A stretch of 64,000 bases of DNA. Origin: Bacillota bacterium. GTDB taxonomy: Bacteria; Bacillota_I; Bacilli_A; ML615J-28; CAG-698. The position numbers and the translations under genes were made by a program. The notes beneath the pieces are model-generated. The model worked only from the letters and a program-made list of their open reading frames with translations, was not told the DNA's origin and did not search any database. Below are positions 6,622-49,295 of this stretch, one piece after another; the first letter of the stretch is position 1; each line of letters starts with the position of its first letter. The stretch covers positions 966 through 64,965 of the forward strand of contig JAEYQM010000086.1 in assembly GCA_023410025.1 (NCBI GenBank), in the 5' to 3' direction.

Positions 6622-8067
6622 ATGGAAATTCTAAAAAAAGGTTGCTTATGCACAGAAAACCCAATTGTTGTAGGTTTATTTAAAGGTGAAACAAAAGTAA
6701 ATGTAATAGAAAAACTTGATAAAAATATAGAATTATTATTAAATGATAATTTAATCAAAACTGAACTTGGAGAAGTTAATAAAATATATACTTTTGGAAT
6801 AATTGAAAGTAAAGAAGTGTATGTAATTGGTTTAGGTGAAAAACAAAATTATTCAATTAAAAATCTTGAAAAGGTAGCAAGAAAAATCACTAAAAAATTA
6901 GGTGAAAAAGTAACAATTTTAGTTGATACTTTTATCAATGATTTAGAGAAAAAAGAAGCATTAAAAACATTATTATTAACAGTTGATTACTATGATTATA
7001 ACTATGATGAATGTAAGAGCAAAAAAGATGAAAAAACATTTGAAATTAGTATAGTTTCTAAAGATGATTTTTCAAATGAAATCGAAGAATTTTATAATGT
7101 TGCAAATGCAATTAGCAACACAAGAGATCTAGTAAATAAACCTTATAATTACTTAAATGCAAATGACTTAGCAGTTTATGCACAAGAATTAGTTAAATCA
7201 TTAGATAGTGATTTAGTAAACATCAAAGTATTGGAAAAAGATGAAATTGAAGCTTTAGGAATGAATGCATTCTTAGGTGTAAATAAAGGGTCAACAGATG
7301 AACCAAAATTAATTCATATTACATATAAAGGTAAAGATGATTTTACAGATCCAATTGCCTTAATTGGTAAAGGTGTTATGTTTGATACTGGTGGATATAG
7401 CATCAAACAAACAATGAATAATATGAAAGATGATATGGGTGGAGCAGCAACTGTCCTTGGAGTATTAGAAGCTGCAGTTAAGAATAAATTAAAAGTTAAT
7501 CTACAAATCGTAATTTGTGCAACAGACAACCGCATTAGTGGTAATGCATACTTACCAGATGATGTATTAACAGCAATGAATAAGAAAACAATTGAAATTG
7601 TCTCTACAGATGCTGAAGGAAGATTAACATTAGCTGATGCATTATGCTATGCACAAAAGAATGGAAGTAAGAAATTAATTGACCTTGCAACATTAACTGG
7701 TGCAGTTGTTGTTGCCTTAGGTGAATATACAACTGGTATTTTTGGAAATAATAAAAAAATGGTTCAACAAATTATTGAATGTGGTGATAAGGAACTTGAA
7801 GAAGTTTGGGAATTACCAATTAATGATAATATTCGTGAAAAAGTACGTGGATCAAAAGTTGCTGACTTAACTAACTCAACAGGAAGATATATGGGTGCAT
7901 CAGGAGCCGCTGCATTCTTAGAAGAATTCGTTGAAGAAGGAAGCGACTGGGTACACTTAGATATAGCAGGAACATCATTTAGAACTGCTCCATCATATGG
8001 TGAATTCTATGGTGCTTCAGGTGTAATGATTAAAACATTATATAATTATTTAAAAAATTTAAATTAG
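6622..8067 (+). CDS. pepA: Leucyl/cytosol aminopeptidase, M17 family
   Basis: 481 aa. M17 signature NTDAEGRL (VSTDAEGRLTLADA) and metal-binding region GKGVMFDTGGYSIK. RBS AGGAGG. Confidence 0.9.
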   Translation: MEILKKGCLCTENPIVVGLFKGETKVNVIEKLDKNIELLLNDNLIKTELGEVNKIYTFGIIESKEVYVIGLGEKQNYSIKNLEKVARKITKKLGEKVTILVDTFINDLEKKEALKTLLLTVDYYDYNYDECKSKKDEKTFEISIVSKDDFSNEIEEFYNVANAISNTRDLVNKPYNYLNANDLAVYAQELVKSLDSDLVNIKVLEKDEIEALGMNAFLGVNKGSTDEPKLIHITYKGKDDFTDPIALIGKGVMFDTGGYSIKQTMNNMKDDMGGAATVLGVLEAAVKNKLKVNLQIVICATDNRISGNAYLPDDVLTAMNKKTIEIVSTDAEGRLTLADALCYAQKNGSKKLIDLATLTGAVVVALGEYTTGIFGNNKKMVQQIIECGDKELEEVWELPINDNIREKVRGSKVADLTNSTGRYMGASGAAAFLEEFVEEGSDWVHLDIAGTSFRTAPSYGEFYGASGVMIKTLYNYLKNLN

Positions 8068-8089
8068 TTAAATAAAAAGGGGGTTTAAT

Positions 8090-10654: not shown

Positions 10655-11044
10655 TTATTTTGCAAGTTTTCTAAATGGATAATCGTAATTAATTTCTTCA
10701 TCAAATGTAATGTAATCAAGGTAAATTGTAAGAAGTAAATAACGCATTTCTGAATTTAAATCTTTAAGAATAATATGGTCTTTTCCAGCAGCAAGTAATA
10801 CTCCTTTAAATATTTTTGATCCCCACTGACTATTCTCAAAATTCATATAAACACTAGCAACTTTTCCAATATTAAGCCTCAAAATGTTTTCAATATATGA
10901 TGATTCAGCTTGAGAGGCAATTTGTGCTAGCGGGTCAGTAATACCAGGTAACAATTGAGGCATCAATTGCGGAACCTGAGCAAGCATTTGTTGTTGACAT
11001 TGTGCAGGGTTATACCCCATATAATATGGTTGAAAATAATTCAT
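10655..11044 (-). CDS. gerQ: Spore coat protein GerQ
   Basis: Q/P-rich N-terminus and a conserved C-terminal GerQ-like block (YIENILRLNIGKVASVYMNFENSQWGSKIFKGVLLAAGKDHIILKD...YLDYITFDEEINY). Immediately downstream of cwlJ as in Bacillus. Start chosen at MNYFQ with RBS AGGAGG; the alternative start at 11062 overlaps cwlJ. Confidence 0.75.
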   Translation of the reverse strand: MNYFQPYYMGYNPAQCQQQMLAQVPQLMPQLLPGITDPLAQIASQAESSYIENILRLNIGKVASVYMNFENSQWGSKIFKGVLLAAGKDHIILKDLNSEMRYLLLTIYLDYITFDEEINYDYPFRKLAK

Positions 11045-11052
11045 AAATCCTC

Positions 11053-11481
11053 CTAATAACAATTTTCACTTTCAACAGGTGAATAAAAACAATGGGATTT
11101 AAATTTTCCCGAATTCCATTGATTAAACCATTGTGCTTGGCAATCGCCAGTTGTTGCATAAAACCAAAGTGATCTTTGGGCAGGTGAGAATTTCTCTCCT
11201 TTAATTACTCTACGAGCTAATTTAATATCAACTTCTCGTGCTGGTTGATAAAAATATGAGTAAAGAGTTGATTCAAATCCACCCGGTCTTTGAAACACCA
11301 TTTGCTCAATAGATCTTATATCAATAAAATCTAAACAATTTGCAAGAACTCTATTAATTCCAACATTACCCACTAAGAGCATTCCAAGTTGCCCATCACT
11401 TTCAGCTTCAGCACGCATAAGTCTAGCAAGTAGCTTAACTTCTGCCTCATTGTATTTCACAACGCTCATACCCCACCCCAT
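11053..11481 (-). CDS. cwlJ: Spore cortex-lytic cell wall hydrolase CwlJ/SleB family
   Basis: 142 aa Hydrolase_2-like domain (LARLMRAEAESDGQLGMLLVGNVGINRV...QRPGGFES). RBS GGGGTGGGGT. Forms cwlJ-gerQ pair. Confidence 0.85.
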   Translation of the reverse strand: MGWGMSVVKYNEAEVKLLARLMRAEAESDGQLGMLLVGNVGINRVLANCLDFIDIRSIEQMVFQRPGGFESTLYSYFYQPAREVDIKLARRVIKGEKFSPAQRSLWFYATTGDCQAQWFNQWNSGKFKSHCFYSPVESENCY

Positions 11482-28185: not shown

Positions 28186-28716
28186 ATGAAAGCTACAGGT
28201 GTTGTGAGACGAATTGATGATTTAGGTCGAATTGTAATTCCAAAGGAAATACGAAGAAGTCTAAGAATTAGAGAAGGAGACTCACTTGAAATATATTCAG
28301 AAGGAAATGATTCAATAGTTTTAAAAAAGTACTCGCCTGTCCAATCAATTGAGAATTTCGCAATCCAATTTGCTGAAGCAATTTACGCAACTTCTAAAAG
28401 GGAAGTTATTATTACTGATAATGAAAAAGTAATTGCATGTGCAGGTGGATTTAGAAAAGACATTATTGGTAAGAAAATTGATATCAGGTTAGATGAAAAA
28501 GTTCAAAAAAGAACATTACAGATATTTAACAAAAATGACAATGTAGAGATAACTGACAATTTAATAATTAAATCTGCTGTTGTTTTAAAACCAATTTCAG
28601 TGTATGGCGATCTAATTGGTTGTGTTATTGTCATTGGTGATAATCAAATTACGGACGTAGAAAAAGCATTAGTGGAATCCTCCGCTACCTTCTTATCCAA
28701 ATATTTAGAATCATAA
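28186..28716 (+). CDS. spoVT: Stage V sporulation protein T (AbrB-N plus GAF-like)
   Basis: N-terminal AbrB/MazE swapped-hairpin motif MKATGVVRRIDDLGRIVIPKEIRRSLRI. 176 aa. Position immediately after mfd reproduces B. subtilis pth-mfd-spoVT synteny. Confidence 0.85.
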   Translation: MKATGVVRRIDDLGRIVIPKEIRRSLRIREGDSLEIYSEGNDSIVLKKYSPVQSIENFAIQFAEAIYATSKREVIITDNEKVIACAGGFRKDIIGKKIDIRLDEKVQKRTLQIFNKNDNVEITDNLIIKSAVVLKPISVYGDLIGCVIVIGDNQITDVEKALVESSATFLSKYLES

Positions 28717-28815: not shown

Positions 28816-29676
28816 ATGGAAAAGATTGCTATTATCTCGGACGTAAATGCCGGTTTGGACTATATCGGATACGACCCTGGAATTCCAGTCCTTCGTTCAA
28901 TAATTAATTTTGGCGATGAACATCTTGTTGATGGAAAAGAAATAATGGCTGATGAGTTTTACAAAAGACTTGAAAAAAGCCCATTAATTCCTTCTACATC
29001 AGCTCCAACGGTTGGAGAGGCAATGGAACTAATTGAAAAATTAATTGATAAAAAATACACTGATGTTATCATGTATTCTATATCTTACAAATTAAGTTCA
29101 ATTGGTCAAATGGTGGAAACATTAATTGATGAGTATAAAAATCAAATTAACATTCACGTGGTAGACACAAAACATGCGGCATACATGCAAGGCTACCTTG
29201 CTATTAATGCCAAAAAGATGGTAGATGTTGGAAAATCAGTAAAAGAGATTTTAGATAGATCTTATCAACTTATTGAACATTCTCATGCATATTTTGTTGT
29301 TGATAATCTAAACTATTTAGTGAAGAATGGTCGTATTACAGGAGCTGCTGGATTCCTTGGTGGACTTCTAAAAATTAAACCAGTTCTTGAAATTACTAAA
29401 GACGGCAGAATTGTTAGTTTTGAGAAAATCAAAACACATAGAAAAGCAGTTGAACGAGCAATTGAATTAATTGAAAGTGAAATAAAAGGTGCAAACAAAA
29501 TTGCATTATTTGTATTTCATACAGTAAGAGAAGATGATGCTAAGAAGATTGCTAATTATTTTAGTGAAAAAATAAAATCTGAGAAATCAATTGAAATACA
29601 TATGATAACTCCAGCTGTAGGCGCTCATATTGGATTAGGAGTGCTTGGAATTGGATATTTCATATTAGAAAAATAG
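28816..29676 (+). CDS. DegV-family fatty-acid-binding protein (FakB-like)
   Basis: 286 aa DegV/EDD fold signature (IAIISDVNAG...STSAPTVGE...FVFHT). RBS AGAGGAG. Promoter-like TTGAAA...TATAAT upstream. Confidence 0.8.
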   Translation: MEKIAIISDVNAGLDYIGYDPGIPVLRSIINFGDEHLVDGKEIMADEFYKRLEKSPLIPSTSAPTVGEAMELIEKLIDKKYTDVIMYSISYKLSSIGQMVETLIDEYKNQINIHVVDTKHAAYMQGYLAINAKKMVDVGKSVKEILDRSYQLIEHSHAYFVVDNLNYLVKNGRITGAAGFLGGLLKIKPVLEITKDGRIVSFEKIKTHRKAVERAIELIESEIKGANKIALFVFHTVREDDAKKIANYFSEKIKSEKSIEIHMITPAVGAHIGLGVLGIGYFILEK

Positions 29677-37501: not shown

Positions 37502-37524
37502 CAGATTGAATCTGTTATTTTTTT
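37501..37524. terminator. Bidirectional terminator
   Basis: ACAGAT-TGA-ATCTGT hairpin followed by a T-run. Abuts convergent msrA and LRR gene stops. Confidence 0.5.
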
Positions 37525-38581
37525 AATTATTACTTGTAACAATTTTATTAAAATTATTAATATAAATTAATGTAATATTTGATATCATATTTTGTACTTT
37601 AGATACATTATCAACATCAGTTGAAAGTGTTGTAAATTTCTGGCACCATGATATAAAATGATCACCAATTGAATTAACACTTAATGGAATATTAAGACTG
37701 ATTAAATCTGTCGCAGCAAAAAATGCATATGAACTAATTATTTCAACATCATTTGTTAACGTAATATCATATAATCTATTACAATTTAAGAATGCTGACT
37801 CACCAATATTTTTTGCAGCAATATTAACTTTTGTTAAAGAAGAACAATCGCTAAAAGCTTCTTGCCCAATAGTTAATACTGAACTGGGAATACTAATTTG
37901 TGATAGAAAACGACACTCACTAAAAGCATTATTACCAATAATTGTAATTGAACTAGGAATCTTAACTGATTCAATATCTTTTTTATAAAAAGCTTTTTGA
38001 TTAATTTCAGTAACTGGTAAGCCATTAAAATTAGTTGGAATAACAACATTCTCACTTGTTCCATTATAACCTGTAACTATATAATACTCATTATCAACAA
38101 GTTTAAATTCTAATCCTTGTGTTGATTCTTCATATATCGCTTTTACAACAATATCTTTTGATATTTTTGTAAATTCTATATCCCAACCAACAAAACTATA
38201 TCCTACTTTTATTGGATTTTCTGGTTTGGTTGCATCTTCTAAATATTCAATGAATTGTTCTTCAATTAATTTATCATCAAAATCAACAAATTTAACACTA
38301 TATTTAGCTTTAGACCAATATGCATATAATGTTATATCTTGTGTAAACTTTACTTTTCCACTATAAACAGTAGAATTAGAATCCTTCCAATGAAGAAATA
38401 CATAACCTACTCTATTAAGTATAGGTAACTCAAATTCCTTATCAGCTTCAATTTTAAGATTTTCTATATGTTCACCGCTATTTGTAACATAACTAATAGT
38501 AATCATTTTTGGTGAAGCATTAGTACATCCAACTATAATAAATCCAATAATCAAAAGTATTAAAATTTTTAAATTACGCAT
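37523..38581 (-). CDS. Surface lipoprotein with Listeria-Bacteroides repeat domain and BspA-type leucine-rich repeats (LRR_5)
   Basis: Lipobox IVGC. Flg_new-like segment (GYVFLHWKD...ITLYAYW). Repeating IP(S)SVxxIGxxAFxxCxxL units. Confidence 0.7.
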   Translation of the reverse strand: MRNLKILILLIIGFIIVGCTNASPKMITISYVTNSGEHIENLKIEADKEFELPILNRVGYVFLHWKDSNSTVYSGKVKFTQDITLYAYWSKAKYSVKFVDFDDKLIEEQFIEYLEDATKPENPIKVGYSFVGWDIEFTKISKDIVVKAIYEESTQGLEFKLVDNEYYIVTGYNGTSENVVIPTNFNGLPVTEINQKAFYKKDIESVKIPSSITIIGNNAFSECRFLSQISIPSSVLTIGQEAFSDCSSLTKVNIAAKNIGESAFLNCNRLYDITLTNDVEIISSYAFFAATDLISLNIPLSVNSIGDHFISWCQKFTTLSTDVDNVSKVQNMISNITLIYINNFNKIVTSNN

Positions 38582-38639: not shown

Positions 38640-39077
38640 TTAATTACCAATTGCAAACATAATTTGGCATTCACATACAATTGTTTCATCGACTTTTGCA
38701 ATGCAATCACATATACCAATTTTCCCCTTTATGTTTAATAGATTTGTATAAAGATAAAGGGTATCTCCAGGAATCACTTTTTTTCTGAATTTTGCCTTTT
38801 TAATACCTGCAAAGTACACCATTTTACCTTTGTTATTTTCACAAGATAAAATTGATACGGCACCAACTTGTGCTAAAGATTCAATAATTAAAACTCCAGG
38901 CATTATATGTTCAGAAGGAAAATGCCCCATAAAGAAATAATCATTGACAGAAACATTTTTTAAACCAACAGCACTCCTGCCAGGAGATAAATTAATTATT
39001 TTATCAACAAGTAAGAATGGATAGCGATGGGGTATAATTTCCTGAATTTGATTACTGTTTAATATCATTTTATTCAC
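38640..39077 (-). CDS. fabZ: 3-hydroxyacyl-ACP dehydratase FabZ
   Basis: EIIPHRYPFLLVDKI and HFPxxPxxPG hot-dog fold motifs. Confidence 0.93.
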   Translation of the reverse strand: MNKMILNSNQIQEIIPHRYPFLLVDKIINLSPGRSAVGLKNVSVNDYFFMGHFPSEHIMPGVLIIESLAQVGAVSILSCENNKGKMVYFAGIKKAKFRKKVIPGDTLYLYTNLLNIKGKIGICDCIAKVDETIVCECQIMFAIGN

Positions 39078-40305
39078 CTTGATATTTTTTAAAAATTAAT
39101 ACGGCGTTTTGTCCACCAAATCCATAGTTATTGCTCATAGCGTAATCTACATTACGATTTACACTAATGTCCTTTGTATAGTTTAGGTCACAATCTGGAT
39201 CATCATTTCTTAAATTAATAGTCGGTGGAATAATACTTTCATTAATAGCTTTTACACAAATAATTGATTCAATAGCCCCAATAGCCCCAAGTGCATGTCC
39301 AGTCATTGATTTTGTTCCACTTAAATTAATGTTGTAAGCATGTTCGCCAAATACTTGTTTAATTGCATATGTCTCAATTTTATCATTGTAATATGTCGAT
39401 GTAGCGTGAGGATTAATATAATCAATTTTATCAGGTGATATGTTAGCATCTTCTAGAGCTAATTGCATACATTTAATAATTGCTTCTGCAGTTTCATCAG
39501 GAGTAGTAATATGATATGCATCACAAGTTGAAGCATAACCAACTAATTCAGCATATATATGGGCATTTCTTTTTTTAGCGTGTTCTAACTCTTCTAAAAT
39601 TAATATTCCGCTGCCTTCAGCCATAACAAATCCATTTCTTTCTTTATCAAATGGAATTGAAGCATTATTTGGATTATCAGAAATACTGATAGCACGCATA
39701 GAAGTAAATCCACCAACACTTAAAGCATTTATAGAAGATTCACTTCCACCAGCAAATGCAATATCAACATATCCATCTCTTATATATCTAAAGGCTTCAC
39801 CAATTGCATTTGTTCCAGCACTACATGCCGTAACAACGGGAATTGATGGACCCTTAGCTTTGTACTTAATAGCGATATTTCCACCAACAAGGTTAACAAT
39901 TGAATTAGTAACAAAGAATGGTGAAACTCTATCAGTTGATTTATCAATTGTTTTTAATGCTTCATCATAAATGGTATTAATTCCACCAATACCACTAGTT
40001 ACAAATGTGCCCATTCGATAACTATCATAATCTTTTAGTTTACTATCATTAAATGCTTGTGTTGCAGCAATTAACGATAGTAACATTACTCTATCTAATC
40101 TTTTATATTCTTTTGGATCTAAGTATAATGAAGGATCTAAATTTTTTACTTCACCAGCAAGTTTAACTTTGTTCTTTGATGTATCAAATTGGGTAATAAA
40201 ATCAATTCCATTTTTACCATTTATTAGTGATTCCCACATTGAATTAACATCATTACCAACAGAAGTAACTGCTCCCATTCCTGTAATAACAACTCGTCTT
40301 TTCAT
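39070..40305 (-). CDS. fabF: 3-oxoacyl-ACP synthase II
   Basis: 411 aa. Active-site ACSAG (Cys), HATST and GHALGAIG His motifs. Confidence 0.93.
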   Translation of the reverse strand: MKRRVVITGMGAVTSVGNDVNSMWESLINGKNGIDFITQFDTSKNKVKLAGEVKNLDPSLYLDPKEYKRLDRVMLLSLIAATQAFNDSKLKDYDSYRMGTFVTSGIGGINTIYDEALKTIDKSTDRVSPFFVTNSIVNLVGGNIAIKYKAKGPSIPVVTACSAGTNAIGEAFRYIRDGYVDIAFAGGSESSINALSVGGFTSMRAISISDNPNNASIPFDKERNGFVMAEGSGILILEELEHAKKRNAHIYAELVGYASTCDAYHITTPDETAEAIIKCMQLALEDANISPDKIDYINPHATSTYYNDKIETYAIKQVFGEHAYNINLSGTKSMTGHALGAIGAIESIICVKAINESIIPPTINLRNDDPDCDLNYTKDISVNRNVDYAMSNNYGFGGQNAVLIFKKYQGE

Positions 40306-40316
40306 ATAAACCCCTA

Positions 40317-41060
40317 TTACATTACCATTCCGCCGTCAACATTAAAAGTTTGACCAGTAATATAATCTGATAATGAACTAGCAAGGAATAAAACTAAATT
40401 AGCAACATCTTCAGGTTCCCCTAATTTTTGAAGTGGAATATTTGCTAAGGCAGCCTCAACTAAGTTTTCATCTAATCCATTTGTCATTTTTGTTTTAATA
40501 AAACCAGGACATACAACATTACATGTTACATTTCTTTTTGCAAGTTCCTTAGCAAGTGATTTAGATAAACCTATAATACCTGCTTTAGATGCTGCATAAT
40601 TAGATTGTCCAGCATTCCCTACTAAACCAACTACAGAAGATATGTTAATAATCTTACCTGAACGTTGTTTTGTCATATATTTTGAAGCATGTTTTGAACA
40701 GTTCCAAGTACCTTTTAAATTCGTATTTATAACACTATCAAATTCTTCTTCACTCATTCTCATAATTAAATTGTCTTTAGTAACACCGGCATTGTTTACT
40801 AATATATCAACTTTACCATATTTAGTAAATGCAAAGTCAATTAATTTTTGAGATTCTTCAAATTTTGATATATTTGCTTGAATATATTCACATTTTTGAC
40901 CCTTTGAAGTTATTTCTTCACATAAAGCCATTGCATCATTTTGACTTGAATTATAATTAACAATAACAACAGCTCCAGCTTCAGCTAATTTTAAAGAAAT
41001 AGCTTTTCCAATTCCTGTTGCTCCCCCAGTTATTATTGCAACCTTATTTACTAGATTCAT
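40317..41060 (-). CDS. fabG: 3-oxoacyl-ACP reductase
   Basis: Short-chain dehydrogenase/reductase: TGGATGIGKA, NNAG, YAASKAG. Confidence 0.93.
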   Translation of the reverse strand: MNLVNKVAIITGGATGIGKAISLKLAEAGAVVIVNYNSSQNDAMALCEEITSKGQKCEYIQANISKFEESQKLIDFAFTKYGKVDILVNNAGVTKDNLIMRMSEEEFDSVINTNLKGTWNCSKHASKYMTKQRSGKIINISSVVGLVGNAGQSNYAASKAGIIGLSKSLAKELAKRNVTCNVVCPGFIKTKMTNGLDENLVEAALANIPLQKLGEPEDVANLVLFLASSLSDYITGQTFNVDGGMVM

Positions 41061-41061
41061 T

Positions 41062-41979
41062 TTATTCCTCCATATGTAATTTAGAAAAATCAGTTAATTT
41101 ATCTAAATTAATTAATTTAATTTCTGAATTAACTTTTTTAATTAAATTAGTTAATACAGTTCCTGGACCAATTTCAATAACACAATCTAATTTGTACTCA
41201 TTTACTAGTTTATAAATGATATGTTCAAATAAAACAGGATGTGTAATTTGATCCCTCATTGCCTCTTTTATGGTTTTAATATCTAATAACTCGCTATTTA
41301 CATTTAATAAAACATCAACTTTGTTTTGTTTTGGTTCAATATTTTGTAAATATGCATAAACTTCTTCACTCGCATTTTTCATAAATTTAGTATGGAAAGC
41401 ACCACTTACATTAAGTGGAAGAATGCGTCTTGCTCCATTTGCTTTTAAAATTTCCATACCAATTAATACAGACTCAACTTTTCCAGAAATTACAACTTGA
41501 TTAATTGTATTATAGTTTGCAACATATAAATCTTCAATAGAAGAACAAATATGACTAACAACATCCTTATCTAGTCCTAAAACAGCAGCCATCATTCCTG
41601 GTACTTTTTGACTATCATCTTGCATAGCACGACTACGAATATTAATTAAACTAATTATTTCATCAAAATTAAATACTCCACTAGCATATAATGCTCCATA
41701 TTCCCCTAATGAAAAACCAGCCATAACAGAAGGATTAATGTCATAAAACTTTTTTAAAACTTCATATATAGCAATTTCAGTAAGAAGCATTGATGGTTGT
41801 GTATAAATTGTTTGATTTAATAAATCATTTTCTTCAAAACATATCTTGGCTATATCATAACCTAAGATATCACTAGCCCTATTATATAGATCTCTAATAA
41901 AACTATATTCAGTATAGAGATCATATCCCATTTTTAAATATTGACTTCCTTGACCGGAAAAAACAAATCCATATTTCAT
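41062..41979 (-). CDS. fabD: Malonyl-CoA:ACP transacylase
   Basis: GQGSQ and GFSLGEY active-site motifs. Confidence 0.93.
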   Translation of the reverse strand: MKYGFVFSGQGSQYLKMGYDLYTEYSFIRDLYNRASDILGYDIAKICFEENDLLNQTIYTQPSMLLTEIAIYEVLKKFYDINPSVMAGFSLGEYGALYASGVFNFDEIISLINIRSRAMQDDSQKVPGMMAAVLGLDKDVVSHICSSIEDLYVANYNTINQVVISGKVESVLIGMEILKANGARRILPLNVSGAFHTKFMKNASEEVYAYLQNIEPKQNKVDVLLNVNSELLDIKTIKEAMRDQITHPVLFEHIIYKLVNEYKLDCVIEIGPGTVLTNLIKKVNSEIKLINLDKLTDFSKLHMEE

Positions 41980-41983
41980 ATTA

Positions 41984-42916
41984 TCACATTATAGAAATTT
42001 TGTTTTTGATTTCATCAATATTATTGAATAAATCAAAAATAATTTCTTCGACCGTTTTTATTTCTTTTATCATTCCTGCAACTTGTCCTGCCATTAAAGA
42101 GCCGTTTACAGTATCTCCTTCAACAACAGCTTTTCTTAATGAACCTAAAGTCATCTTTTCAAGTTCCTCAAGAGTCGCGCCTTCATCGCTTAGACGAATA
42201 TATTCTTTTGCCATTTGATTTTTTAGTACTCGAACTGGAGCACCCGTTTTTCTTCCGGTAACAATAGTATCCGTATCTTTTGCTTCAAGTATTTTTTGTT
42301 TGTAATTTTCATGAATTGGGCATTCTTTACTCGCAAGCATAATTGTTCCAACTTGAACTCCCTTAGCACCTAAGGCAAAACAAGCAATGACCTGTCTTAC
42401 ATCAGCAATACCACCGGCGGCAATAACTGGAATACTTACAGCATCAACTACTTGAGGAACCAATGCCATAGTAGTAAGTTCACCTATATGTCCACCCGAT
42501 TCAGTTCCTTCAACAATAACGGCATCAGCTCCATATTTTTCAACACGTTTTGCAAGAGCAACGCTTGGAACAACAGGAATAACTTTTATACCTGCTTCTT
42601 TAAATCTTTCCATATATGGTATAGGGTTTCCCGCTCCAGTAGTGACAACTGGAACCTTTTCCTCAATAACAACATTAACAATTTCCGAAGCAAATGGACT
42701 AATTAGTAATATATTAACGCCAAAGGGGTTAGATGTTAACTCTTTGGTTTTTCTAATTTCATTCCTAATAAATTCACCATTATTGCCACCTGAAGCAATC
42801 AATCCTAGACCCCCTGCGTTTGATACAGCACTAGCAAGAATATGATTTGCAATATTAGCCATTCCTCCTTGAATTATTGGATATTTAATATTTAAAAGTT
42901 CTGTAATATTTTTCAT
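41984..42916 (-). CDS. fabK: Enoyl-ACP reductase II (FMN, nitronate monooxygenase fold)
   Basis: 310 aa. FabK-type N-terminus (PIIQGGMA...) and conservation throughout. Confidence 0.88.
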   Translation of the reverse strand: MKNITELLNIKYPIIQGGMANIANHILASAVSNAGGLGLIASGGNNGEFIRNEIRKTKELTSNPFGVNILLISPFASEIVNVVIEEKVPVVTTGAGNPIPYMERFKEAGIKVIPVVPSVALAKRVEKYGADAVIVEGTESGGHIGELTTMALVPQVVDAVSIPVIAAGGIADVRQVIACFALGAKGVQVGTIMLASKECPIHENYKQKILEAKDTDTIVTGRKTGAPVRVLKNQMAKEYIRLSDEGATLEELEKMTLGSLRKAVVEGDTVNGSLMAGQVAGMIKEIKTVEEIIFDLFNNIDEIKNKISIM

Positions 42917-42972
42917 TTATTCTCCTTTTAGAGTAAAAGTGGAGGAGACAACCTCCAACTACCTTAATATAA

Positions 42973-43503
42973 TTATTCATCCTCATCATCAATTAATTCA
43001 CCATCAATTTGTAACGCTTCATCATCACTAACATCTTCAATTTCTAAACCTTCATAAAAATTAGTCTCAATTAATTTATTTAGTTCCTCCATAACTTCTG
43101 ATAAATGAAGCATTCTTTCGGTATCAAATTTTCTAATTAAATTTGCAACTAATGTAAAGTAAAACTTACTATAATGTTTTACAATTTTTATACTTTTCTT
43201 TGTAAGATATACTATAATAACTCTTCTATCTTGTTTATGTCTAGTTCTAATGACATATCCCTTTTTCACAAGGCTATTAACAGAAATTGATAATGTACCT
43301 TTTGTAACTTTTAATTGACTAGCAATATCTGACATTGACTTAGTATTTGAGGTTCCAATAATATACAAAACTTTTACTTCATTAGGTGTAACATCGATAA
43401 TATCATAATGTTTTAAATATTCACGTTCAAAAAATTGTAGTTTTGATTGGAACTCAAAAAATGATTCACCGATATTATTTATATAATTATCAATATTCTT
43501 CAT
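42973..43503 (-). CDS. fabT: MarR-family fatty-acid biosynthesis repressor FabT-like
   Basis: Winged-helix region DVTPNEVKVL...KGYVIRTRHKQDRRVIIVYLT resembles streptococcal FabT. Embedded in acc/fab operon. Acidic C-terminal tail. Confidence 0.65.
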   Translation of the reverse strand: MKNIDNYINNIGESFFEFQSKLQFFEREYLKHYDIIDVTPNEVKVLYIIGTSNTKSMSDIASQLKVTKGTLSISVNSLVKKGYVIRTRHKQDRRVIIVYLTKKSIKIVKHYSKFYFTLVANLIRKFDTERMLHLSEVMEELNKLIETNFYEGLEIEDVSDDEALQIDGELIDDEDE

Positions 43504-44299
43504 ATGTTCCAGTCCTTCTATATTTCATATAGCGCTTTTTAATTAATTCTTTTTTATCTATTTTTTTTAATTCATTAATAGTAGTAACTAATTTTTCTTT
43601 AATAATAGAAAAAGAAAAATTAGGGTTTAAATGAAGTCCTCCCTCAACCTCAGGAATTATCATATCAATAATACCAAAACTATATAAATCCTCTGATGTA
43701 AGTTTCATAACAACTGAAGCTTCTTTTGCTCTTGAGGCATCTTTATATAGAATAGAAGCAAAGCCTTCAGGAGATAGAATTGAGTATATTGAGTTTTCAA
43801 ACATCCAAATTTGGTCACTTACACCAATTCCTAAGGCACCACCACTACCACCTTCTCCAAGAACAATTGATATTATTGGTACTTCAAGACCAACCATCTC
43901 TTTTAAGTTATTAGCAATTGCATTAGCTTGTCCTCTTTGTTCAGCACCAACTCCTGGATATGCTCCCGGAGTATCAATAATAGATATGATTGGACGATTA
44001 AATTTTTCTGCTTGTTTCATAATTCTTAGAGCTTTACGATATCCTTCAGGATTAGACATTCCAAAATTATGATATATCTTTTCTTCCGTTGTTGTTCCTT
44101 TTTGTTGGGCAATTATTGTAACAGGAATATTATTTAAAAGTCCAATTCCACAAATTATACTTTTATCATCACCAGATAAACGATCACCTTGTAGCTCAAT
44201 AAAATCAGTAAATAAGAAGTTAATTAATTTTAAAGCATTTGGACGTCTTATATGACGTGCAAGTAGAACTTTATTGAAAACTTGATCAACGTTATTCAT
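43490..44299 (-). CDS. accA: Acetyl-CoA carboxylase carboxyltransferase alpha
   Basis: 269 aa. ClpP/crotonase-like carboxyltransferase motifs (GAYPGVGAEQRGQ). Confidence 0.92.
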   Translation of the reverse strand: MNNVDQVFNKVLLARHIRRPNALKLINFLFTDFIELQGDRLSGDDKSIICGIGLLNNIPVTIIAQQKGTTTEEKIYHNFGMSNPEGYRKALRIMKQAEKFNRPIISIIDTPGAYPGVGAEQRGQANAIANNLKEMVGLEVPIISIVLGEGGSGGALGIGVSDQIWMFENSIYSILSPEGFASILYKDASRAKEASVVMKLTSEDLYSFGIIDMIIPEVEGGLHLNPNFSFSIIKEKLVTTINELKKIDKKELIKKRYMKYRRTGTYEEY

Positions 44300-45171
44300 T
44301 ATTTATCCTCCGAGTGAAGTTTAATTAATCTAGATAATATATCTTTTATTTCATGTCTAGAAACCACCATATCAACAAAACCATGTTGTAACTGGAATTG
44401 TTCAGTTTGGAATCCTTCTGGAAGATCTTGATTAATTGTTTGTTTGATTACCCTTTGACCAGCAAAGCCAATTAAGGAATCTTTTTCAGCAATTATTATA
44501 TCTCCTAAAGAGGCATAACTTGCAAGAACTCCACCAGTTGTAGGATTTGTTAGAATACTAATAAATAATAGTTTTTCCATGTCATGTAGTTTGATAGCGG
44601 CACTTGTTTTAGCCATTTGCATTAGTGAATAAATACCTTCTTGCATTCTAGCACCACCCGATGCTGAAAAGATAATTAAGGGAAGTCGATGTTCAATTGA
44701 ATATTCAATTAATTTAGTTACTTTTTCACCAACAACTGTTCCCATACTTCCCATCATAAAGAAACTATCTAATACACCAATTGCAACTTTTTGTTTATTA
44801 ATTAATCCTGTTCCACAAATAAAAGCTTCAAATTCATTTGTCATTTGTTGGTATTTTTGAATCTTTTCATCATAATCAGGAAAATTAAGTGGATTGTTTG
44901 CTTTAATATTTGCAAATAATTCACAAAAACTATTATTATCTAAAGTTATAGTAAGTCTTTTTATTGCATTAATTTTAAAATGATATGAACACTTAGGACA
45001 TACATCAAGATTTTTTTCTAAGTCTTCGTTAAAGATAAGTTCATTACAATTTTCACACTTTATAAAAAGCCCTATTGGAATATCTTTTTTAGTAACTTCA
45101 GTTGTTTTATTGCGGAAGAGTTTTTTAAAGTACTCGACTCTTTCCTTCCTATCATCGATGAAGTTGCTCAT
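44299..45171 (-). CDS. accD: Acetyl-CoA carboxylase carboxyltransferase beta
   Basis: N-terminal zinc ribbon CENCNELIF...CPKCSYH followed by carboxyltransferase domain. Confidence 0.92.
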   Translation of the reverse strand: MSNFIDDRKERVEYFKKLFRNKTTEVTKKDIPIGLFIKCENCNELIFNEDLEKNLDVCPKCSYHFKINAIKRLTITLDNNSFCELFANIKANNPLNFPDYDEKIQKYQQMTNEFEAFICGTGLINKQKVAIGVLDSFFMMGSMGTVVGEKVTKLIEYSIEHRLPLIIFSASGGARMQEGIYSLMQMAKTSAAIKLHDMEKLLFISILTNPTTGGVLASYASLGDIIIAEKDSLIGFAGQRVIKQTINQDLPEGFQTEQFQLQHGFVDMVVSRHEIKDILSRLIKLHSEDK

Positions 45172-46528
45172 ATTTATTTGCCCTCACTATTTCAAAAAAA
45201 CTATTTACAAAATTTGTATCATATAATCCACGAACAAAATTTGTATTAAACATAATTAGATATAAAAATTCAACATTTGTTATTATTCCATCTATCATAA
45301 ATTCTTCTAATGCTACACGCATTTTTCTAATTGCTTCACGTCTAGTGGGAGCATAAACAATTAATTTTGCAAGCATTGAATCATAATATGGAGATACTGT
45401 GTAGTTTCCATATATATGAGTATCAATTCTAACTCCAGGTCCACCAGGGAAAATAACATTGTTTATTAATCCAGGTGATGGTCTAAAAAAATTATCTGGA
45501 TCTTCAGCATTTATCCTACATTCAATGGCATGACCTTTAATTGTTATATCTTCTTGCTTGAAACTAAGAGGGTTTTTGAAAGCAATTTTAATTTGCTCTT
45601 TAACAATATCAATGCCTGTAACCATTTCTGTCACGGGATGTTCTACTTGAATACGAGTATTTACTTCAATAAAGAAGTAATTGTTGTTTTTATCAACAAT
45701 AAACTCTACTGTTCCTGCACTACGATAGTTACTAATTTTAGCAATTCTAATTGCTGCCTCACCTAGTTCTTTTCTTAATTCATTTGATATAAAAGGTGAT
45801 GGTGATTCTTCAATCATTTTTTGATTTCTTCTTTGAATTGAACAATCTCTTTCCCCAAAATGAACAATATTACCAAAATTATCGGCAAGAAATTGAATCT
45901 CAATATGTCTAGGATTTTCAATATATTTTTCTATATATACAGAGTCATCACTAAAATTAACTAAAGCTTCTTGCTTTGTTTGAAAGAACAAGTGTCTTAG
46001 TTCTTCAGAATTATTAATAATACTAATTCCTTTTCCACCACCACCAGATACAGCTTTAATTAATATAGGGTAACCGATTTGTTCAGATACCTTAATAGCT
46101 TCTTCAATACTTTCAACCGTTCCATTAGATCCAGCAACTACCGGAACATTTGCTTTTTTTGCAATTTCTTTTGCAGTTGCTTTATTACCTAATAATTTAA
46201 TTGTTTGACTAGTTGGTCCAATAAAATTTATATTACACTTTTCAACAATACTAACAAATTTATCATTTTCAGATAAAAAACCATAACCAGGATGAATAGC
46301 ATCAGCACCAGTTGCAATAGCAGCACTAATAATATTAGTAATATTTAGGTAACTATCTGAACTTTTTTCTCCACCAATACAAATTGATTCATCCGCAAGC
46401 TTTACATGTAAACTATTTATATCTGCTTTTGAATAAACAGCTACAGTTGAAATTCCCAATTCTTTACAGGCCCTAATAATACGAATGGCAATTTCTCCAC
46501 GATTGGCAATTAATACTTTGTTTGACAT
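45152..46528 (-). CDS. accC: Biotin carboxylase
   Basis: 458 aa. ATP-grasp, MSNKVLIANRGEIAIRIIRA, GGGGKG. Confidence 0.95.
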   Translation of the reverse strand: MSNKVLIANRGEIAIRIIRACKELGISTVAVYSKADINSLHVKLADESICIGGEKSSDSYLNITNIISAAIATGADAIHPGYGFLSENDKFVSIVEKCNINFIGPTSQTIKLLGNKATAKEIAKKANVPVVAGSNGTVESIEEAIKVSEQIGYPILIKAVSGGGGKGISIINNSEELRHLFFQTKQEALVNFSDDSVYIEKYIENPRHIEIQFLADNFGNIVHFGERDCSIQRRNQKMIEESPSPFISNELRKELGEAAIRIAKISNYRSAGTVEFIVDKNNNYFFIEVNTRIQVEHPVTEMVTGIDIVKEQIKIAFKNPLSFKQEDITIKGHAIECRINAEDPDNFFRPSPGLINNVIFPGGPGVRIDTHIYGNYTVSPYYDSMLAKLIVYAPTRREAIRKMRVALEEFMIDGIITNVEFLYLIMFNTNFVRGLYDTNFVNSFFEIVRANKYEQLHR

Positions 46529-46945
46529 TTATTCAATTACCATCAAAACTTGATCAAAGCCTACTGCTTCACCATTTGCTACTTTAATTTCAGTAACTAC
46601 ACCATCGATAGGAGAAGTAATCTCATTCATAATTTTCATTGCTTCAATGATGCAAAGTGTTTGTTTTGCAGATACTTTGTCTCCCACTTTTACAAATGGT
46701 GGTTGATTAGGGCCACTAGCAGTATAGAATGTTCCTACAATTGGGCTTTTTAAACAGAATTTGTTTTTTTCACAATCTTCATCATGTTTTTGATTGTTTT
46801 GTAATTCAACATACTCTTTTTTCAAAATGGTTGGGTTTGTTAATTTACTAAGCCTGATATGAAAACCTTCGTTAGTTAATTCAAGTTCAGTTAAGTTTGA
46901 TTTCTCAAAATTTTTAATAATAGTTTGTACTTCTTTTAGATTCAT
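46529..46945 (-). CDS. accB: Biotin carboxyl carrier protein
   Basis: Biotinylation motif EAMKIMNEI. 138 aa. RBS AGGAGGG. Confidence 0.93.
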   Translation of the reverse strand: MNLKEVQTIIKNFEKSNLTELELTNEGFHIRLSKLTNPTILKKEYVELQNNQKHDEDCEKNKFCLKSPIVGTFYTASGPNQPPFVKVGDKVSAKQTLCIIEAMKIMNEITSPIDGVVTEIKVANGEAVGFDQVLMVIE

Positions 46946-46962
46946 GTTCCCTCCTATAAAAA

Positions 46963-47014
46963 AATGACGATTATATCGTCATTAAATTTCGTTTGTAAAG
47001 TGACGACATCACTT
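46963..47014 (-). promoter_or_regulatory. acc-fab operon promoter (TTTACA-18-TATAAT) with two TGACGA-containing palindromes
   Basis: On the minus strand, -35 TTTACA (46994-46999) and -10 TATAAT (46970-46975). The -10 is the exact centre of the perfect 9-3-9 palindrome AATGACGAT-ATA-ATCGTCATT (46963-46983). A second palindrome AAGTGA-TGTCG-TCACTT (46998-47014) abuts the -35. Confidence 0.55.
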
Positions 47015-47079
47015 AGTAAAAAGATTGTATAAGTAATTTTGTATTAATTAAAATCGGTATTAAAAATATTATAAAAAAT

Positions 47080-47931
47080 TTAGTAATTAATATATCCAAC
47101 ACCAATAACCGATAAACCTAAGTGAGCTACTACAGTTGCTGGAATATTAAAAACTTCTATTTTTATATTAGGTAATTTATCTTTTATTATCTCTAATACA
47201 AATTCTAAATCTTTAGTATTATCAGTATATGATACATGTACCACACCAGTATTTACATTAACTTTCCCAACTAACATATCAACAATTTTAATTAAAGCCT
47301 TTTTATAAGTTCTAACTGTTTCAGTTGAAATAAGTTTTCCATCCCTACTAAATTCAATTACAGGTTTGATTTTTAAGATATTTGCAACTAATCCTTTCGC
47401 ATTTGATAGTCTCCCATTTTTAATTAGATATGTAAGATTATCAACTGTTAAAAAATATTGCCAGTTCTGCTTTATAAAATCAATGTGCTTTAAGATATCT
47501 GCAACTGTTCCACCATTATTAGAAATTCTAGCAGCATCTAATACCATACTAGTTAGAATAGAAACAGTAGTTAAGGTATCAACAATTTCAATATTTATAT
47601 CATCTATCATCTCTTTTGCAATCATTGCATTTTGATATGTTCCACTTAATTCTTTAGAAATACATAGGAACACAATATCAGTATAACCAAGATCTTTGAT
47701 CATTTCAAAGGTAGTAAGTACTTCCCCCATTGATGGTTGAGAAGTTTTTGGTACATCTACCGAACTTTTAAGCGCATTATAAAATTGTTCATTACCAAAT
47801 TTTTCAAAATCAGTATATACATCACTACCTAAAAAACATGGAAGATTTATCATAAAAATATTGTTATATTCATGTTTTATATTATATATTGATGATGAAC
47901 TGTCTGTAAGAATCGCAATTTTTGTCTTCAT
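47080..47931 (-). CDS. DegV-family fatty-acid-binding protein (FakB-like), second paralog
   Basis: DegV signature (KIAILTDSSSS). Start at ATG 47931 after AGAGAGGA. Directly upstream of the acc operon promoter, same strand. Confidence 0.8.
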   Translation of the reverse strand: MKTKIAILTDSSSSIYNIKHEYNNIFMINLPCFLGSDVYTDFEKFGNEQFYNALKSSVDVPKTSQPSMGEVLTTFEMIKDLGYTDIVFLCISKELSGTYQNAMIAKEMIDDINIEIVDTLTTVSILTSMVLDAARISNNGGTVADILKHIDFIKQNWQYFLTVDNLTYLIKNGRLSNAKGLVANILKIKPVIEFSRDGKLISTETVRTYKKALIKIVDMLVGKVNVNTGVVHVSYTDNTKDLEFVLEIIKDKLPNIKIEVFNIPATVVAHLGLSVIGVGYINY

Positions 47932-47950
47932 AATATCCTCTCTTAAAATT

Positions 47951-47983
47951 AATTTGAAATACAAATAATTTGAATTTCAAATT
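47951..47983. promoter_or_regulatory. Tandem FabT-box-like palindromes
   Basis: AATTTGA-ATT-TCAAATT (47967-47983) matches the streptococcal FabT palindrome ANTTTGA-N3-TCAAATT. An adjacent imperfect copy AATTTGA-AAT-ACAAATA lies at 47951-47967. Both are embedded in a perfect 16-bp inverted repeat AAAATTAATTTGAAAT (47945-47960 / 47974-47989). Confidence 0.55.
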
Positions 47984-48034
47984 AATTTTAACATATAATA
48001 CATTAATTTGTCAATGCATATAATAAATTAAGTA

Positions 48035-48063
48035 TTGGAAATTAATGTTTTATGAAGTATAAT
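48035..48063 (+). promoter_or_regulatory. Sigma-A promoter TTGGAA-17-TATAAT
   Basis: Hexamers at 48035-48040 and 48058-48063, 19 nt before the start codon of the 48082 gene. Confidence 0.55.
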
Positions 48064-48081
48064 TAAAATAGGTGATTAGTT

Positions 48082-48852
48082 ATGAAAGCATATCAATGTG
48101 TCAATTGTAAGTTCTTAACATATGAAAAAAACAAAATCTGTCCTATTTGTGAGGATAATGTGGAAGAAGTAAATGTTCCAAATAGGAATGAAAAAACTTT
48201 TTCTAATCCAATAAGAATAAAAAAATTGAATCAAGATGTAAACTTTAATTACTATTGTTATAAATGCAAGAAATACGGAATAAATAAAATCTGTATGGAT
48301 TGTAATGTTAATTGTTATTTAGGTATTGAAATCAAGGAAAAAAGATATGTTTTAAGTAGAATTAGAAGTCTATCTGAAGTTTATTCCCCAAGTGAAGTAA
48401 AAAAAATAGTTGATGAAACATCAACTGATGATAAAGAATTGATATATAGAAATTTAGAAGAACCTAGTAGATTTTTTTATCGTAAGGATAAAGGTAAATC
48501 ATATACTTGTATATTTATAGGAATATTAATATATATAGCGGGGTTTGCTATTTCAACACAAAATTATAATGATGGATTGCTATCAAGTATTGCTAATGCA
48601 GTTGGTAATGGCGTATTTACAATTTTTTTAGCGTTAGGGATTGGCTATTTAGATAATGCTTATATGATTGAAGAAGAGCATGTACCAATTGTTTTTAGTG
48701 TAATTACACTTGTATTAATGTTGATATATCTAGGAATAGCTGTTGGATTTGATTTGTCATATACAGTAAGCTATTTAATTGGACTTGGATTAATGATAAT
48801 TGCGCTTATTTCTAATTTAATTTATTATTTAGTATTGAGGAAGTTAAAATGA
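48082..48852 (+). CDS. Double zinc-ribbon protein with C-terminal membrane domain, unknown function
   Basis: CVNC-x13-CPIC and CYKC-x9-CMDC motifs, then about 4 transmembrane helices. Same overall architecture as the 30938 gene. Confidence 0.6.
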   Translation: MKAYQCVNCKFLTYEKNKICPICEDNVEEVNVPNRNEKTFSNPIRIKKLNQDVNFNYYCYKCKKYGINKICMDCNVNCYLGIEIKEKRYVLSRIRSLSEVYSPSEVKKIVDETSTDDKELIYRNLEEPSRFFYRKDKGKSYTCIFIGILIYIAGFAISTQNYNDGLLSSIANAVGNGVFTIFLALGIGYLDNAYMIEEEHVPIVFSVITLVLMLIYLGIAVGFDLSYTVSYLIGLGLMIIALISNLIYYLVLRKLK

Positions 48853-49295
48853 AAAAATATTTACTGGCTATAGCAACCTTTATGTGGATTGCCTTTATTT
48901 TTATGAATTCATTACAAACAGGTGTAGAATCTGGTGAAGTAAGTTCAAAGATAACAGAAGTTGTAATTAAAGTATTAAATTTAATTAATATTAATTTAGA
49001 TTTTAACACAACAGCAATTTTTATTAGAAAGTGTGCTCATGTATTCGAATATTTTATTTTAGGAATACTATTTGCATTGACATATATTAATATGATAGGT
49101 AATCTAAATTACCGAATTATATATACTTTTTTATCAGCATTAGTTGTTAGTATATCAGATGAAATCATTCAACTATATGTACCAGGAAGAGTTGGTGCAG
49201 TAACTGATGTATTAATTGATACAATCGGGATAGTTTTAGGAATTATTATAATATTACTAATTATAAAAATTAGAAAAAAGAGAACAGAAGTTTAA
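48849..49295 (+). CDS. VanZ-like family membrane protein
   Basis: 148 aa. VanZ motif region RKCAHVFEYFILGILF. 4 transmembrane helices. Overlaps the upstream stop (translational coupling). Confidence 0.7.
   Translation: MKKYLLAIATFMWIAFIFMNSLQTGVESGEVSSKITEVVIKVLNLININLDFNTTAIFIRKCAHVFEYFILGILFALTYINMIGNLNYRIIYTFLSALVVSISDEIIQLYVPGRVGAVTDVLIDTIGIVLGIIIILLIIKIRKKRTEV

Follow-up and report, generated by a model that had tools for sequence, protein, structure and literature searches.

A predicted FabT-type tandem operator in the promoter of a degV/fakB gene adjoining a fatty-acid synthesis cluster in a relative of Haloplasma/Acholeplasma-like Bacilli

Introduction

FabT is of interest because it decides whether pathogens can bypass inhibitors of fatty-acid synthesis by means of host lipids. 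FapR of Bacillus and Staphylococcus, a malonyl-CoA sensor with a DeoR-like N-terminal domain and a thioesterase-like fold, represses FASII and phospholipid genes globally in low-GC Gram-positive bacteria, and its operators overlap promoters. For MarR operators that take up several dimers, cooperative binding has reportedly been seen with CdmR of C. difficile.

FabT of streptococci, enterococci and lactococci binds a TTTGA-N3-TCAAA palindrome, for which the consensus sequences 5'-ANTTTGATTATCAAATT (PMC11452403) and ANTTTGACTGTNAAATT (PMC8406281) have been published; acyl-ACP enhances the binding, and binding to a single site is weak. FabT boxes have been described as single or, ahead of S. pyogenes fabK, as a pair separated by 238 bp, and repression by the streptococcal and enterococcal proteins is weak (2- to 5-fold). 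The FabT regulon of S. pyogenes includes fakB4, with the other fak genes outside it, and published work questions the existing FabT co-crystal structure. Among the papers listed by a literature search on FabT in Acholeplasma, Haloplasma, Mollicutes or Turicibacter, none mentioned FabT.

Here we analysed a pair of FabT-type boxes in the window, that is, the whole stretch of 64,000 nucleotides under study (G+C 27.8%). A preliminary description had read the pair as a FabT operator at a fakB gene, with the regulator encoded in the adjoining FASII cluster. The half-sites are those of the known FabT systems, and the gene arrangement and the phased arrangement of the boxes differ from them.

Results

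A tandem pair of FabT-type boxes lies in the degV leader

With gyrB-gyrA at its start and mnmG-rsmG-parA also present, the window is apparently close to the replication origin. Among named relatives, those nearest to its organism are Haloplasmataceae/Acholeplasmataceae-like MAGs. Genes of sporulation or germination type (Spore_GerQ, a CwlJ/SleB-like cell-wall hydrolase and SpoVT) are found at 10655-11481 and 28186-28716.

The degV/fakB gene (47080-47931, minus strand) encodes a predicted fatty-acid-binding subunit of fatty acid kinase, with 247.6 bits against TIGR00762 DegV and 201.5 bits against the FakB1 model, under the cut-off of 350. Translation starts at the ATG at 47931; the TTG at 47964, further upstream, is not the start. 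The homologues have 283 aa, and a ribosome-binding site AGAGAGGA (47936-47943, minus strand) follows directly after the second box. Because of this start codon, ribosome-binding site and homologue length, the boxes are assigned to the leader and not to coding sequence, which agrees with the position in the 5' leader of a DegV/FakB gene given in the preliminary description. A sigma-70-type promoter is predicted for the gene at 47985-48014 on the minus strand, with TTGACA (48014-48009), N18 and TG-n-TAAAAT (47990-47985). It has 11 of 12 matches plus the TG and is the best promoter-like site on the gene strand, and its TTGACA is invariant in the alignment of orthologous loci.

Box 1, AATTTGAATTTCAAATT (47967-47983, unstranded), is a perfect palindrome of 17 bp with 8-nt arms around one central base, and it agrees exactly with ANTTTGA-N3-TCAAATT. 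It abuts the predicted -10 element, with its first base 1 nt past the hexamer, and the predicted transcription start falls within it. Box 2, AATTTGAAATACAAATA (47951-47967, unstranded; TATTTGTATTTCAAATT on the gene strand), has two mismatches to AATTTGA-N3-TCAAATT and a single change within the 10-base core, and is offset from box 1 by exactly 16 bp. The PWM scores were 19.7 and 15.8, respectively, and the two boxes together fill the stretch from the predicted transcription start to the ribosome-binding site. The exact box and its two-mismatch neighbour were thus as first reported. The inverted repeat that encloses them had been given as 16 bp (47945-47960 / 47974-47989); it is perfect, but its arms are 18 nt long (47943-47960 / 47974-47991, unstranded) and consist of the outer half of each box plus flanks. 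The closest relative, L085, retains part of this repeat and L001, L022 and L024 have none of it, a distribution by which we take it to be clade-specific and not the functional or conserved unit.

Two other features of the window were recorded. A direct repeat, CATATAATA(C/A)ATTAA, occurs at 47992-48006 and 48017-48031, 25 bp apart, flanking the degV -35 element. Each copy holds a plus-strand TATAAT, and these could be alternative plus-strand promoters or chance occurrences in AT-rich DNA. A second DegV/FakB paralogue, 31% identical to the first, lies at 28816-29676, directly downstream of the SpoVT-like gene (28186-28716); its upstream region, used as a specificity control, is equally AT-rich, and no FabT-type box was found there.

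The exact pattern ANTTTGANNNTCAAATT occurred at one site in the window, counted as two strand-matches since the site is a palindrome, versus 0.03 in shuffled sequences. With up to two mismatches there were 4 matches versus 4.6 expected, that is, no enrichment, and generic 7-3-7 palindromes were common (19 in the window). Because of these two results the evidence from the window by itself is no more than suggestive, and the comparative evidence is decisive. The two-mismatch count has too little power in DNA of 28% GC, and comparative tests were used instead. A further PWM match at 1597 (score 12.5) was discarded as a site; it lies inside gyrB and is at shuffle expectation.

The boxes form a phased array in orthologous degV promoters

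Proteins on metagenome contigs match the DegV protein with 100% identity, and those of MAGs labelled Bacilli, Haloplasmataceae and Acholeplasmataceae match it with 48-77%. The comparative set comprised 25 genome loci of Haloplasma/Acholeplasma-like Bacilli with a degV orthologue (48-66% protein identity, GC 28-54%). All 25 have one to four TTTGA-N3-TCAAA boxes in the degV upstream region, directly 3' of the -10 of a TTGACA-N17/18-TAnAAT promoter and ahead of the ribosome-binding site, and an equivalent of box 1 is present in every one of them. The box consensus in these loci is (A/T)(A/G)TTTGAA-N-TTCAAA(C/T)(T/A). Matches to the exact 10-base core were found at 32 of 3,700 upstream positions versus 11 of 300,248 positions elsewhere in the 25 loci, a 236-fold enrichment; most of the boxes elsewhere are a second operator just upstream of accB, after the terminator hairpin that follows acpP, in loci of Haloplasma type. 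The concern that such palindromes arise at random in AT-rich DNA held for generic palindromes, which are common, and for two-mismatch matches, which are at expectation, but not for the exact core, which is concentrated upstream of degV.

The spacing of the boxes was equally regular. Neighbouring boxes in orthologous promoters were 16 bp apart in 28 of 28 cases, and the distance from the -35 TTGAC to the first box core was 31-33 nt in 22 of 23 loci. Since the spacer between boxes is also 3 nt, the array amounts to a lattice of half-sites, one every 8 bp in alternating orientation. These comparisons indicate that what is conserved is the array of TTTGA-N3-TCAAA boxes with its 16-bp phase. Several loci have near-matches at about +2140-2240, for example ATATTGAAGTTCAAATT; these lie inside the accC coding sequence and were set aside as coding conservation.

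Boxes were also observed beside other DegV paralogues. At L025 6947-6977 and, in a Turicibacter MAG, at L030 4772-4802, two boxes overlap with 14-bp spacing (AATTTGATTATCAAAGT then AGTTTGAA); they precede more distant DegV paralogues, in a different phase and a different lineage. At L057 6843-6998 a DegV paralogue and a divergent CDP-alcohol phosphatidyltransferase gene flank a box scoring 18.4, a hint that phospholipid head-group genes may belong to the regulon of some Haloplasmataceae.

Tandem arrays precede lipid and MarR genes in metagenomes

A blind scan of metagenomes with the tandem pattern TTTGAANTTCAAANNNTTTGANNNTCAAA returned 69 stretches from organisms of 28-58% G+C. In 53 of the 69 the array lies at most 400 nt upstream of a degV, fabH, acpP, fabK, accB or MarR gene; 52 of these were recognised by tblastn with the proteins of the window, and one, L146, by its Pfam MarR gene. 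The remaining arrays are mostly at contig ends. Arrays lie directly upstream of a MarR gene in L107, L108 and L146. The MarR gene is fabT-like by tblastn in L107 and L108, with 32-37% identity to S. pneumoniae FabT, and not fabT-like in L146. The enrichment at lipid genes that the preliminary description had proposed to look for was in this way found across many genomes, as the 236-fold excess in the 25 loci and as the 53 of 69 arrays at FASII, fakB or MarR genes.

On human-gut contigs of about 49% GC the boxes lie 31 nt upstream of a fabH-acpP-fabK-fabD-fabG-fabF-accB-fabZ-accCDA cluster, and the promoter has the same grammar, namely TTGACA, a 17-nt spacer and TGcAATAT, with two boxes behind it. 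The phased array thus occurs beyond the lineage of the window. Human-gut-type loci with this promoter-plus-tandem-box grammar include L112 3030-3120, L103, L141 and L154, and the same grammar was seen upstream of acpP-fabK in other contigs. The sequence of the boxes, their position at promoters, their conservation and their association with FASII, fakB and fabT-like genes are direct observations.

A FabT-like MarR regulator is encoded in the cluster

The proposed binder of the boxes is a MarR-family regulator encoded at 42973-43503 (minus strand), between accA and fabK. Its best NCBIfam match is FabT (NF050133), at 86.3 bits versus a cut-off of 200, so it is FabT-like and not a certified member of that equivalog. 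The best PDB match is 6jbx, S. pneumoniae FabT (E 9e-14), to which it is 36% identical over 87 aa of the DNA-binding region. With the qualification set by the equivalog cut-off, these matches bear out the earlier statement that the operon encodes a FabT-like MarR regulator. The winged helix-turn-helix is nearly invariant among the orthologues, in line with the invariant half-sites. The gene is syntenic in every locus long enough to show it and lies inside the FASII cluster, between accA and fabK here and between accA and fabH in most relatives. All orthologues also have a C-terminal extension of about 30 aa (42973-43065 in the window), with a conserved (I/L)(I/L)ETNFYEG motif and then an acidic tail, which is absent from the aligned S. 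pneumoniae FabT fragment.

A conserved hairpin separates degV from a reduced FASII cluster

Downstream of degV on the minus strand lie accB, accC, accD and accA for acetyl-CoA carboxylase (43490-46945; NCBIfam/Pfam), then marR, then fabK, fabD, fabG, fabF and fabZ (38640-42916), of which fabG, fabF and fabZ were assigned by ORF size and synteny. The order degV-(acpP)-accBCDA-marR-(fabH)-fabK-fabD-fabG-fabF is conserved among the 25 loci. A protein with BspA-type leucine-rich repeats and a Listeria-Bacteroides repeat (37523-38581) follows fabZ; L121 has a homologue at the corresponding position, and L002 and L014 have one near degV.

Between degV and accB lies a hairpin, AATGACGAT-ATA-ATCGTCATT, followed by a T-run (46963-46983, minus strand). 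With a 9-bp stem, a 3-nt loop, seven T and -8.7 kcal/mol it has the features of an intrinsic terminator. It is kept in L001 and L085, and 25 of 26 nt are identical to L001, where it stands directly after the acpP stop codon. Because of this near-identity at that position we regard the hairpin as a conserved predicted terminator or attenuator and not as an operator. The palindrome AATGACGATATAATCGTCATT at 46963-46983 had been considered as an alternative MarR operator and was rejected, since it is kept with L001 and L085 as a hairpin plus T-run after acpP and other relatives have different stem sequences at the same place. A promoter-like TATAAT in the hairpin loop is not conserved, being TATTAT in L085 and TATCAT in L001.

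The preliminary description had degV running into the accB operon. The cluster does adjoin degV, but the conserved hairpin and T-run intervene, and a single degV-acc-marR-fab operon is therefore likely only. No box was found upstream of accB, marR or fabK within the window, and the only boxes of the cluster are those at degV. Because the hairpin and T-run separate degV from accB, control of FASII and autoregulation of marR would depend on read-through. Relatives have a second box after the hairpin, and in L107 and L108 the arrays lie directly upstream of the fabT-like gene.

The cluster of the window also appears to have lost two genes. In L001, the closest well-assembled relative, and in most other orthologous loci, acpP separates degV from accB, and fabH separates marR from fabK (Pfam; 7862-8086 and 12090-13028 in L001, respectively). 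Both are absent at the corresponding places of the window (46946-47079 and 42917-42972) and were found by tblastn nowhere else in the 64 kb. L085 is likewise without both, and L011 and L015 have the same reduced layout. The only retained trace is the terminator hairpin that follows acpP in L001. Comparison with these relatives suggests that acpP and fabH were lost from the FASII operon in the genome of the window; if they were missing genome-wide, FASII could elongate imported fatty acids only.

Discussion

Control of degV by the FabT-like MarR protein

The boxes are very probably a tandem operator for the FabT-like MarR protein encoded 4.4 kb downstream in the same cluster. The earlier reading, of a FabT-type operator pair in the degV/fakB promoter with a cluster-encoded FabT-like MarR regulator, is supported by the identity of the half-sites, the conservation in 25 of 25 loci, the metagenome arrays and the database matches of the MarR protein. 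We infer the identity of the binder, its ligand and the direction of regulation. The mechanism would most likely be classic promoter occlusion by a FabT-type MarR repressor, in which dimers on the boxes at -10/+1 block open-complex formation or promoter escape. Repression would shut off degV (fakB) and, as far as transcripts pass the hairpin at 46963-46983, the acc-marR-fab genes, in which case the regulator would control its own expression. If streptococcal and enterococcal FabT are a guide, long-chain acyl-ACP would strengthen the binding, and an ample supply of fatty acid, whether exogenous or endogenous, would then reduce synthesis as well as the FakB of the degV locus. Counted against the reading are the score of the MarR protein below the FabT cut-off, the absence of boxes at accB, marR and fabK in the window, the hairpin between degV and accB, and the fact that acpP and fabH are not in the cluster or the window, so that the source of the presumed acyl-ACP ligand is not visible there.

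Alternative readings

The operator might also serve as a bidirectional switch for the divergent gene pair at 48082-49295, which encodes a zinc-ribbon membrane protein (256 aa, no Pfam or NCBIfam match) and a VanZ-family protein. The pair recurs in this clade as divergent neighbour of the lipid operon, namely in L001, L022, L024, L085, L090, L092, L099, L121, L147 and L149, with mostly about 91-102 nt between the array and the start codon of the zinc-ribbon gene, and a weaker plus-strand promoter-like site, TTGAAT-N18-TATAAT (47970-47999), overlaps box 1. However, the zinc-ribbon gene has a promoter of its own, TTGGAA-N17-TATAAT (48035-48063), about 50 nt beyond the boxes, with a -10 that is invariant in 7 aligned loci. 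The boxes are near -95 and -111 of this promoter, and hence not placed for repression. In most orthologous degV loci the boxes occur with no zinc-ribbon neighbour, and they accompany degV or acpP irrespective of that gene. The co-regulation of the 48082 gene from the same site that had been suggested is thus not borne out, and we consider a switch of this kind unlikely.

A conserved operator could be real and yet be bound by a transcription factor other than the MarR protein of the cluster. The identity of the regulator comes from motif similarity, neighbourhood and homology, with the protein scoring below the FabT cut-off, and several array loci of human-gut type have no detected MarR gene within the flanks examined. 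On the other side, the half-sites equal the published FabT half-sites, marR is syntenic wherever the locus is long enough, and in L107 and L108 the arrays are directly 5' of fabT-like genes. To our knowledge none of the FapR, CodY, Rex and CRP/FNR motifs has the TTTGA-N3-TCAAA half-site and spacing, which also counts against another binder, and no FapR-like gene or motif was found to be involved at the degV-FASII cluster. Another binder is in our judgement quite improbable.

The inverted repeat might instead act as an RNA hairpin in the degV leader and affect stability or translation. The boxes would be transcribed if the predicted promoter is right, and the leader folds with -9.6 kcal/mol (z-score -2.15), a modest energy that is due to the inverted repeat. 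Compensated pair changes were nevertheless seen in none of 54 boxes, and pair 7-11 was broken in 18, figures to be read with the selection of the boxes at no more than one mismatch. It is as sequence that the half-site bases are conserved, the long inverted repeat is not kept beyond the closest relative, and the same boxes precede accB, fabH and acpP in other leader contexts. A search of 46800-48200 against Rfam gave as sole match a chance miRNA inside degV (E 0.69) and none in the degV leader. With neither covariation nor an Rfam match, the RNA element was rejected and has very little probability left. A chance origin of the palindrome in AT-rich intergenic DNA, for which the 19 generic palindromes of the window and the two-mismatch count at expectation speak, is refuted by the comparative data (position, phase and sequence kept in 25 of 25 loci, 236-fold enrichment, 53 of 69 arrays at lipid genes) and is hardly credible.

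An operator lattice outside Lactobacillales

The phased arrays suggest a further and more tentative proposal, which may well prove wrong. Outside Lactobacillales the native FabT operator would be not a single palindrome but a half-site lattice, (TTTGA-N3-TCAAA-N3)n with n = 2-4, locked on the -10 and occupied by several dimers, possibly cooperatively. This architecture is common to Haloplasma/Acholeplasma-like Bacilli, Turicibacter-like organisms and human-gut Firmicutes of about 49% GC. If this were true, the arrays would be bound by several dimers on alternate sides of the helix, with repression that could be cooperative and far stronger than 2- to 5-fold, and in the lineage of the window a dedicated FakB and the entire FASII operon would be held in check by one array. 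The operator grammar, with its 16-bp phase and fixed offset from the -10, could improve regulon prediction and help settle how the FabT dimer reads DNA.

Significance and comparison with known systems

The FabT switch itself is already known, as is FabT control of a fakB gene in S. pyogenes. New are the lineage, an operon that fakB heads and that has the regulator gene midway, and the strict, widespread 16-bp array abutting the -10, of which we found no description in the FabT literature consulted. With this finding the FabT switch reaches beyond lactic acid bacteria to uncultured relatives of wall-less bacteria (Haloplasma/Acholeplasma-like Bacilli) and, through the metagenome scan, to gut Firmicutes, and it yields a testable prediction as to which FakB paralogue is tied to de novo synthesis in Haloplasma/Acholeplasma-like Bacilli. 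The known mechanism of FabT is unchanged by it, and the phased arrays are a modest extra.

The operator half-sites are the same as those of FabT in S. pneumoniae, S. pyogenes, E. faecalis and L. lactis, within ANTTTGA-N3-TCAAATT. As in the known FabT systems, the MarR protein is encoded inside the FASII cluster and FASII promoters are targeted, and like fabT the marR gene directly precedes fabH in most relatives. The restriction to one fakB also has its counterpart in S. pyogenes, where only fakB4 belongs to the regulon; here only the FASII-linked DegV paralogue carries boxes. Unlike S. pneumoniae FabT, to which it is about 36% identical, the regulator has an extra C-terminal extension of about 30 aa with the ETNFYEG motif and acidic tail, and unlike the 'perfectly coupled' arrangement of Lactobacillales, where the regulator is the first gene, marR stands in the middle of the cluster, after accA; that fakB heads the operon is a further difference. 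FapR differs in protein family, ligand and operator, the cluster regulator here being a MarR protein. The described FabT boxes have no counterpart of the contiguous 16-bp-phased arrays of two to four boxes that directly abut the -10. Multi-dimer MarR operators such as that of CdmR resemble these arrays in having adjacent palindromes over a promoter, which implies more than one dimer, whereas the arrays stand apart from such operators generally in their strict 16-bp phase, with half-sites every 8 bp in alternating orientation, kept across many lineages.
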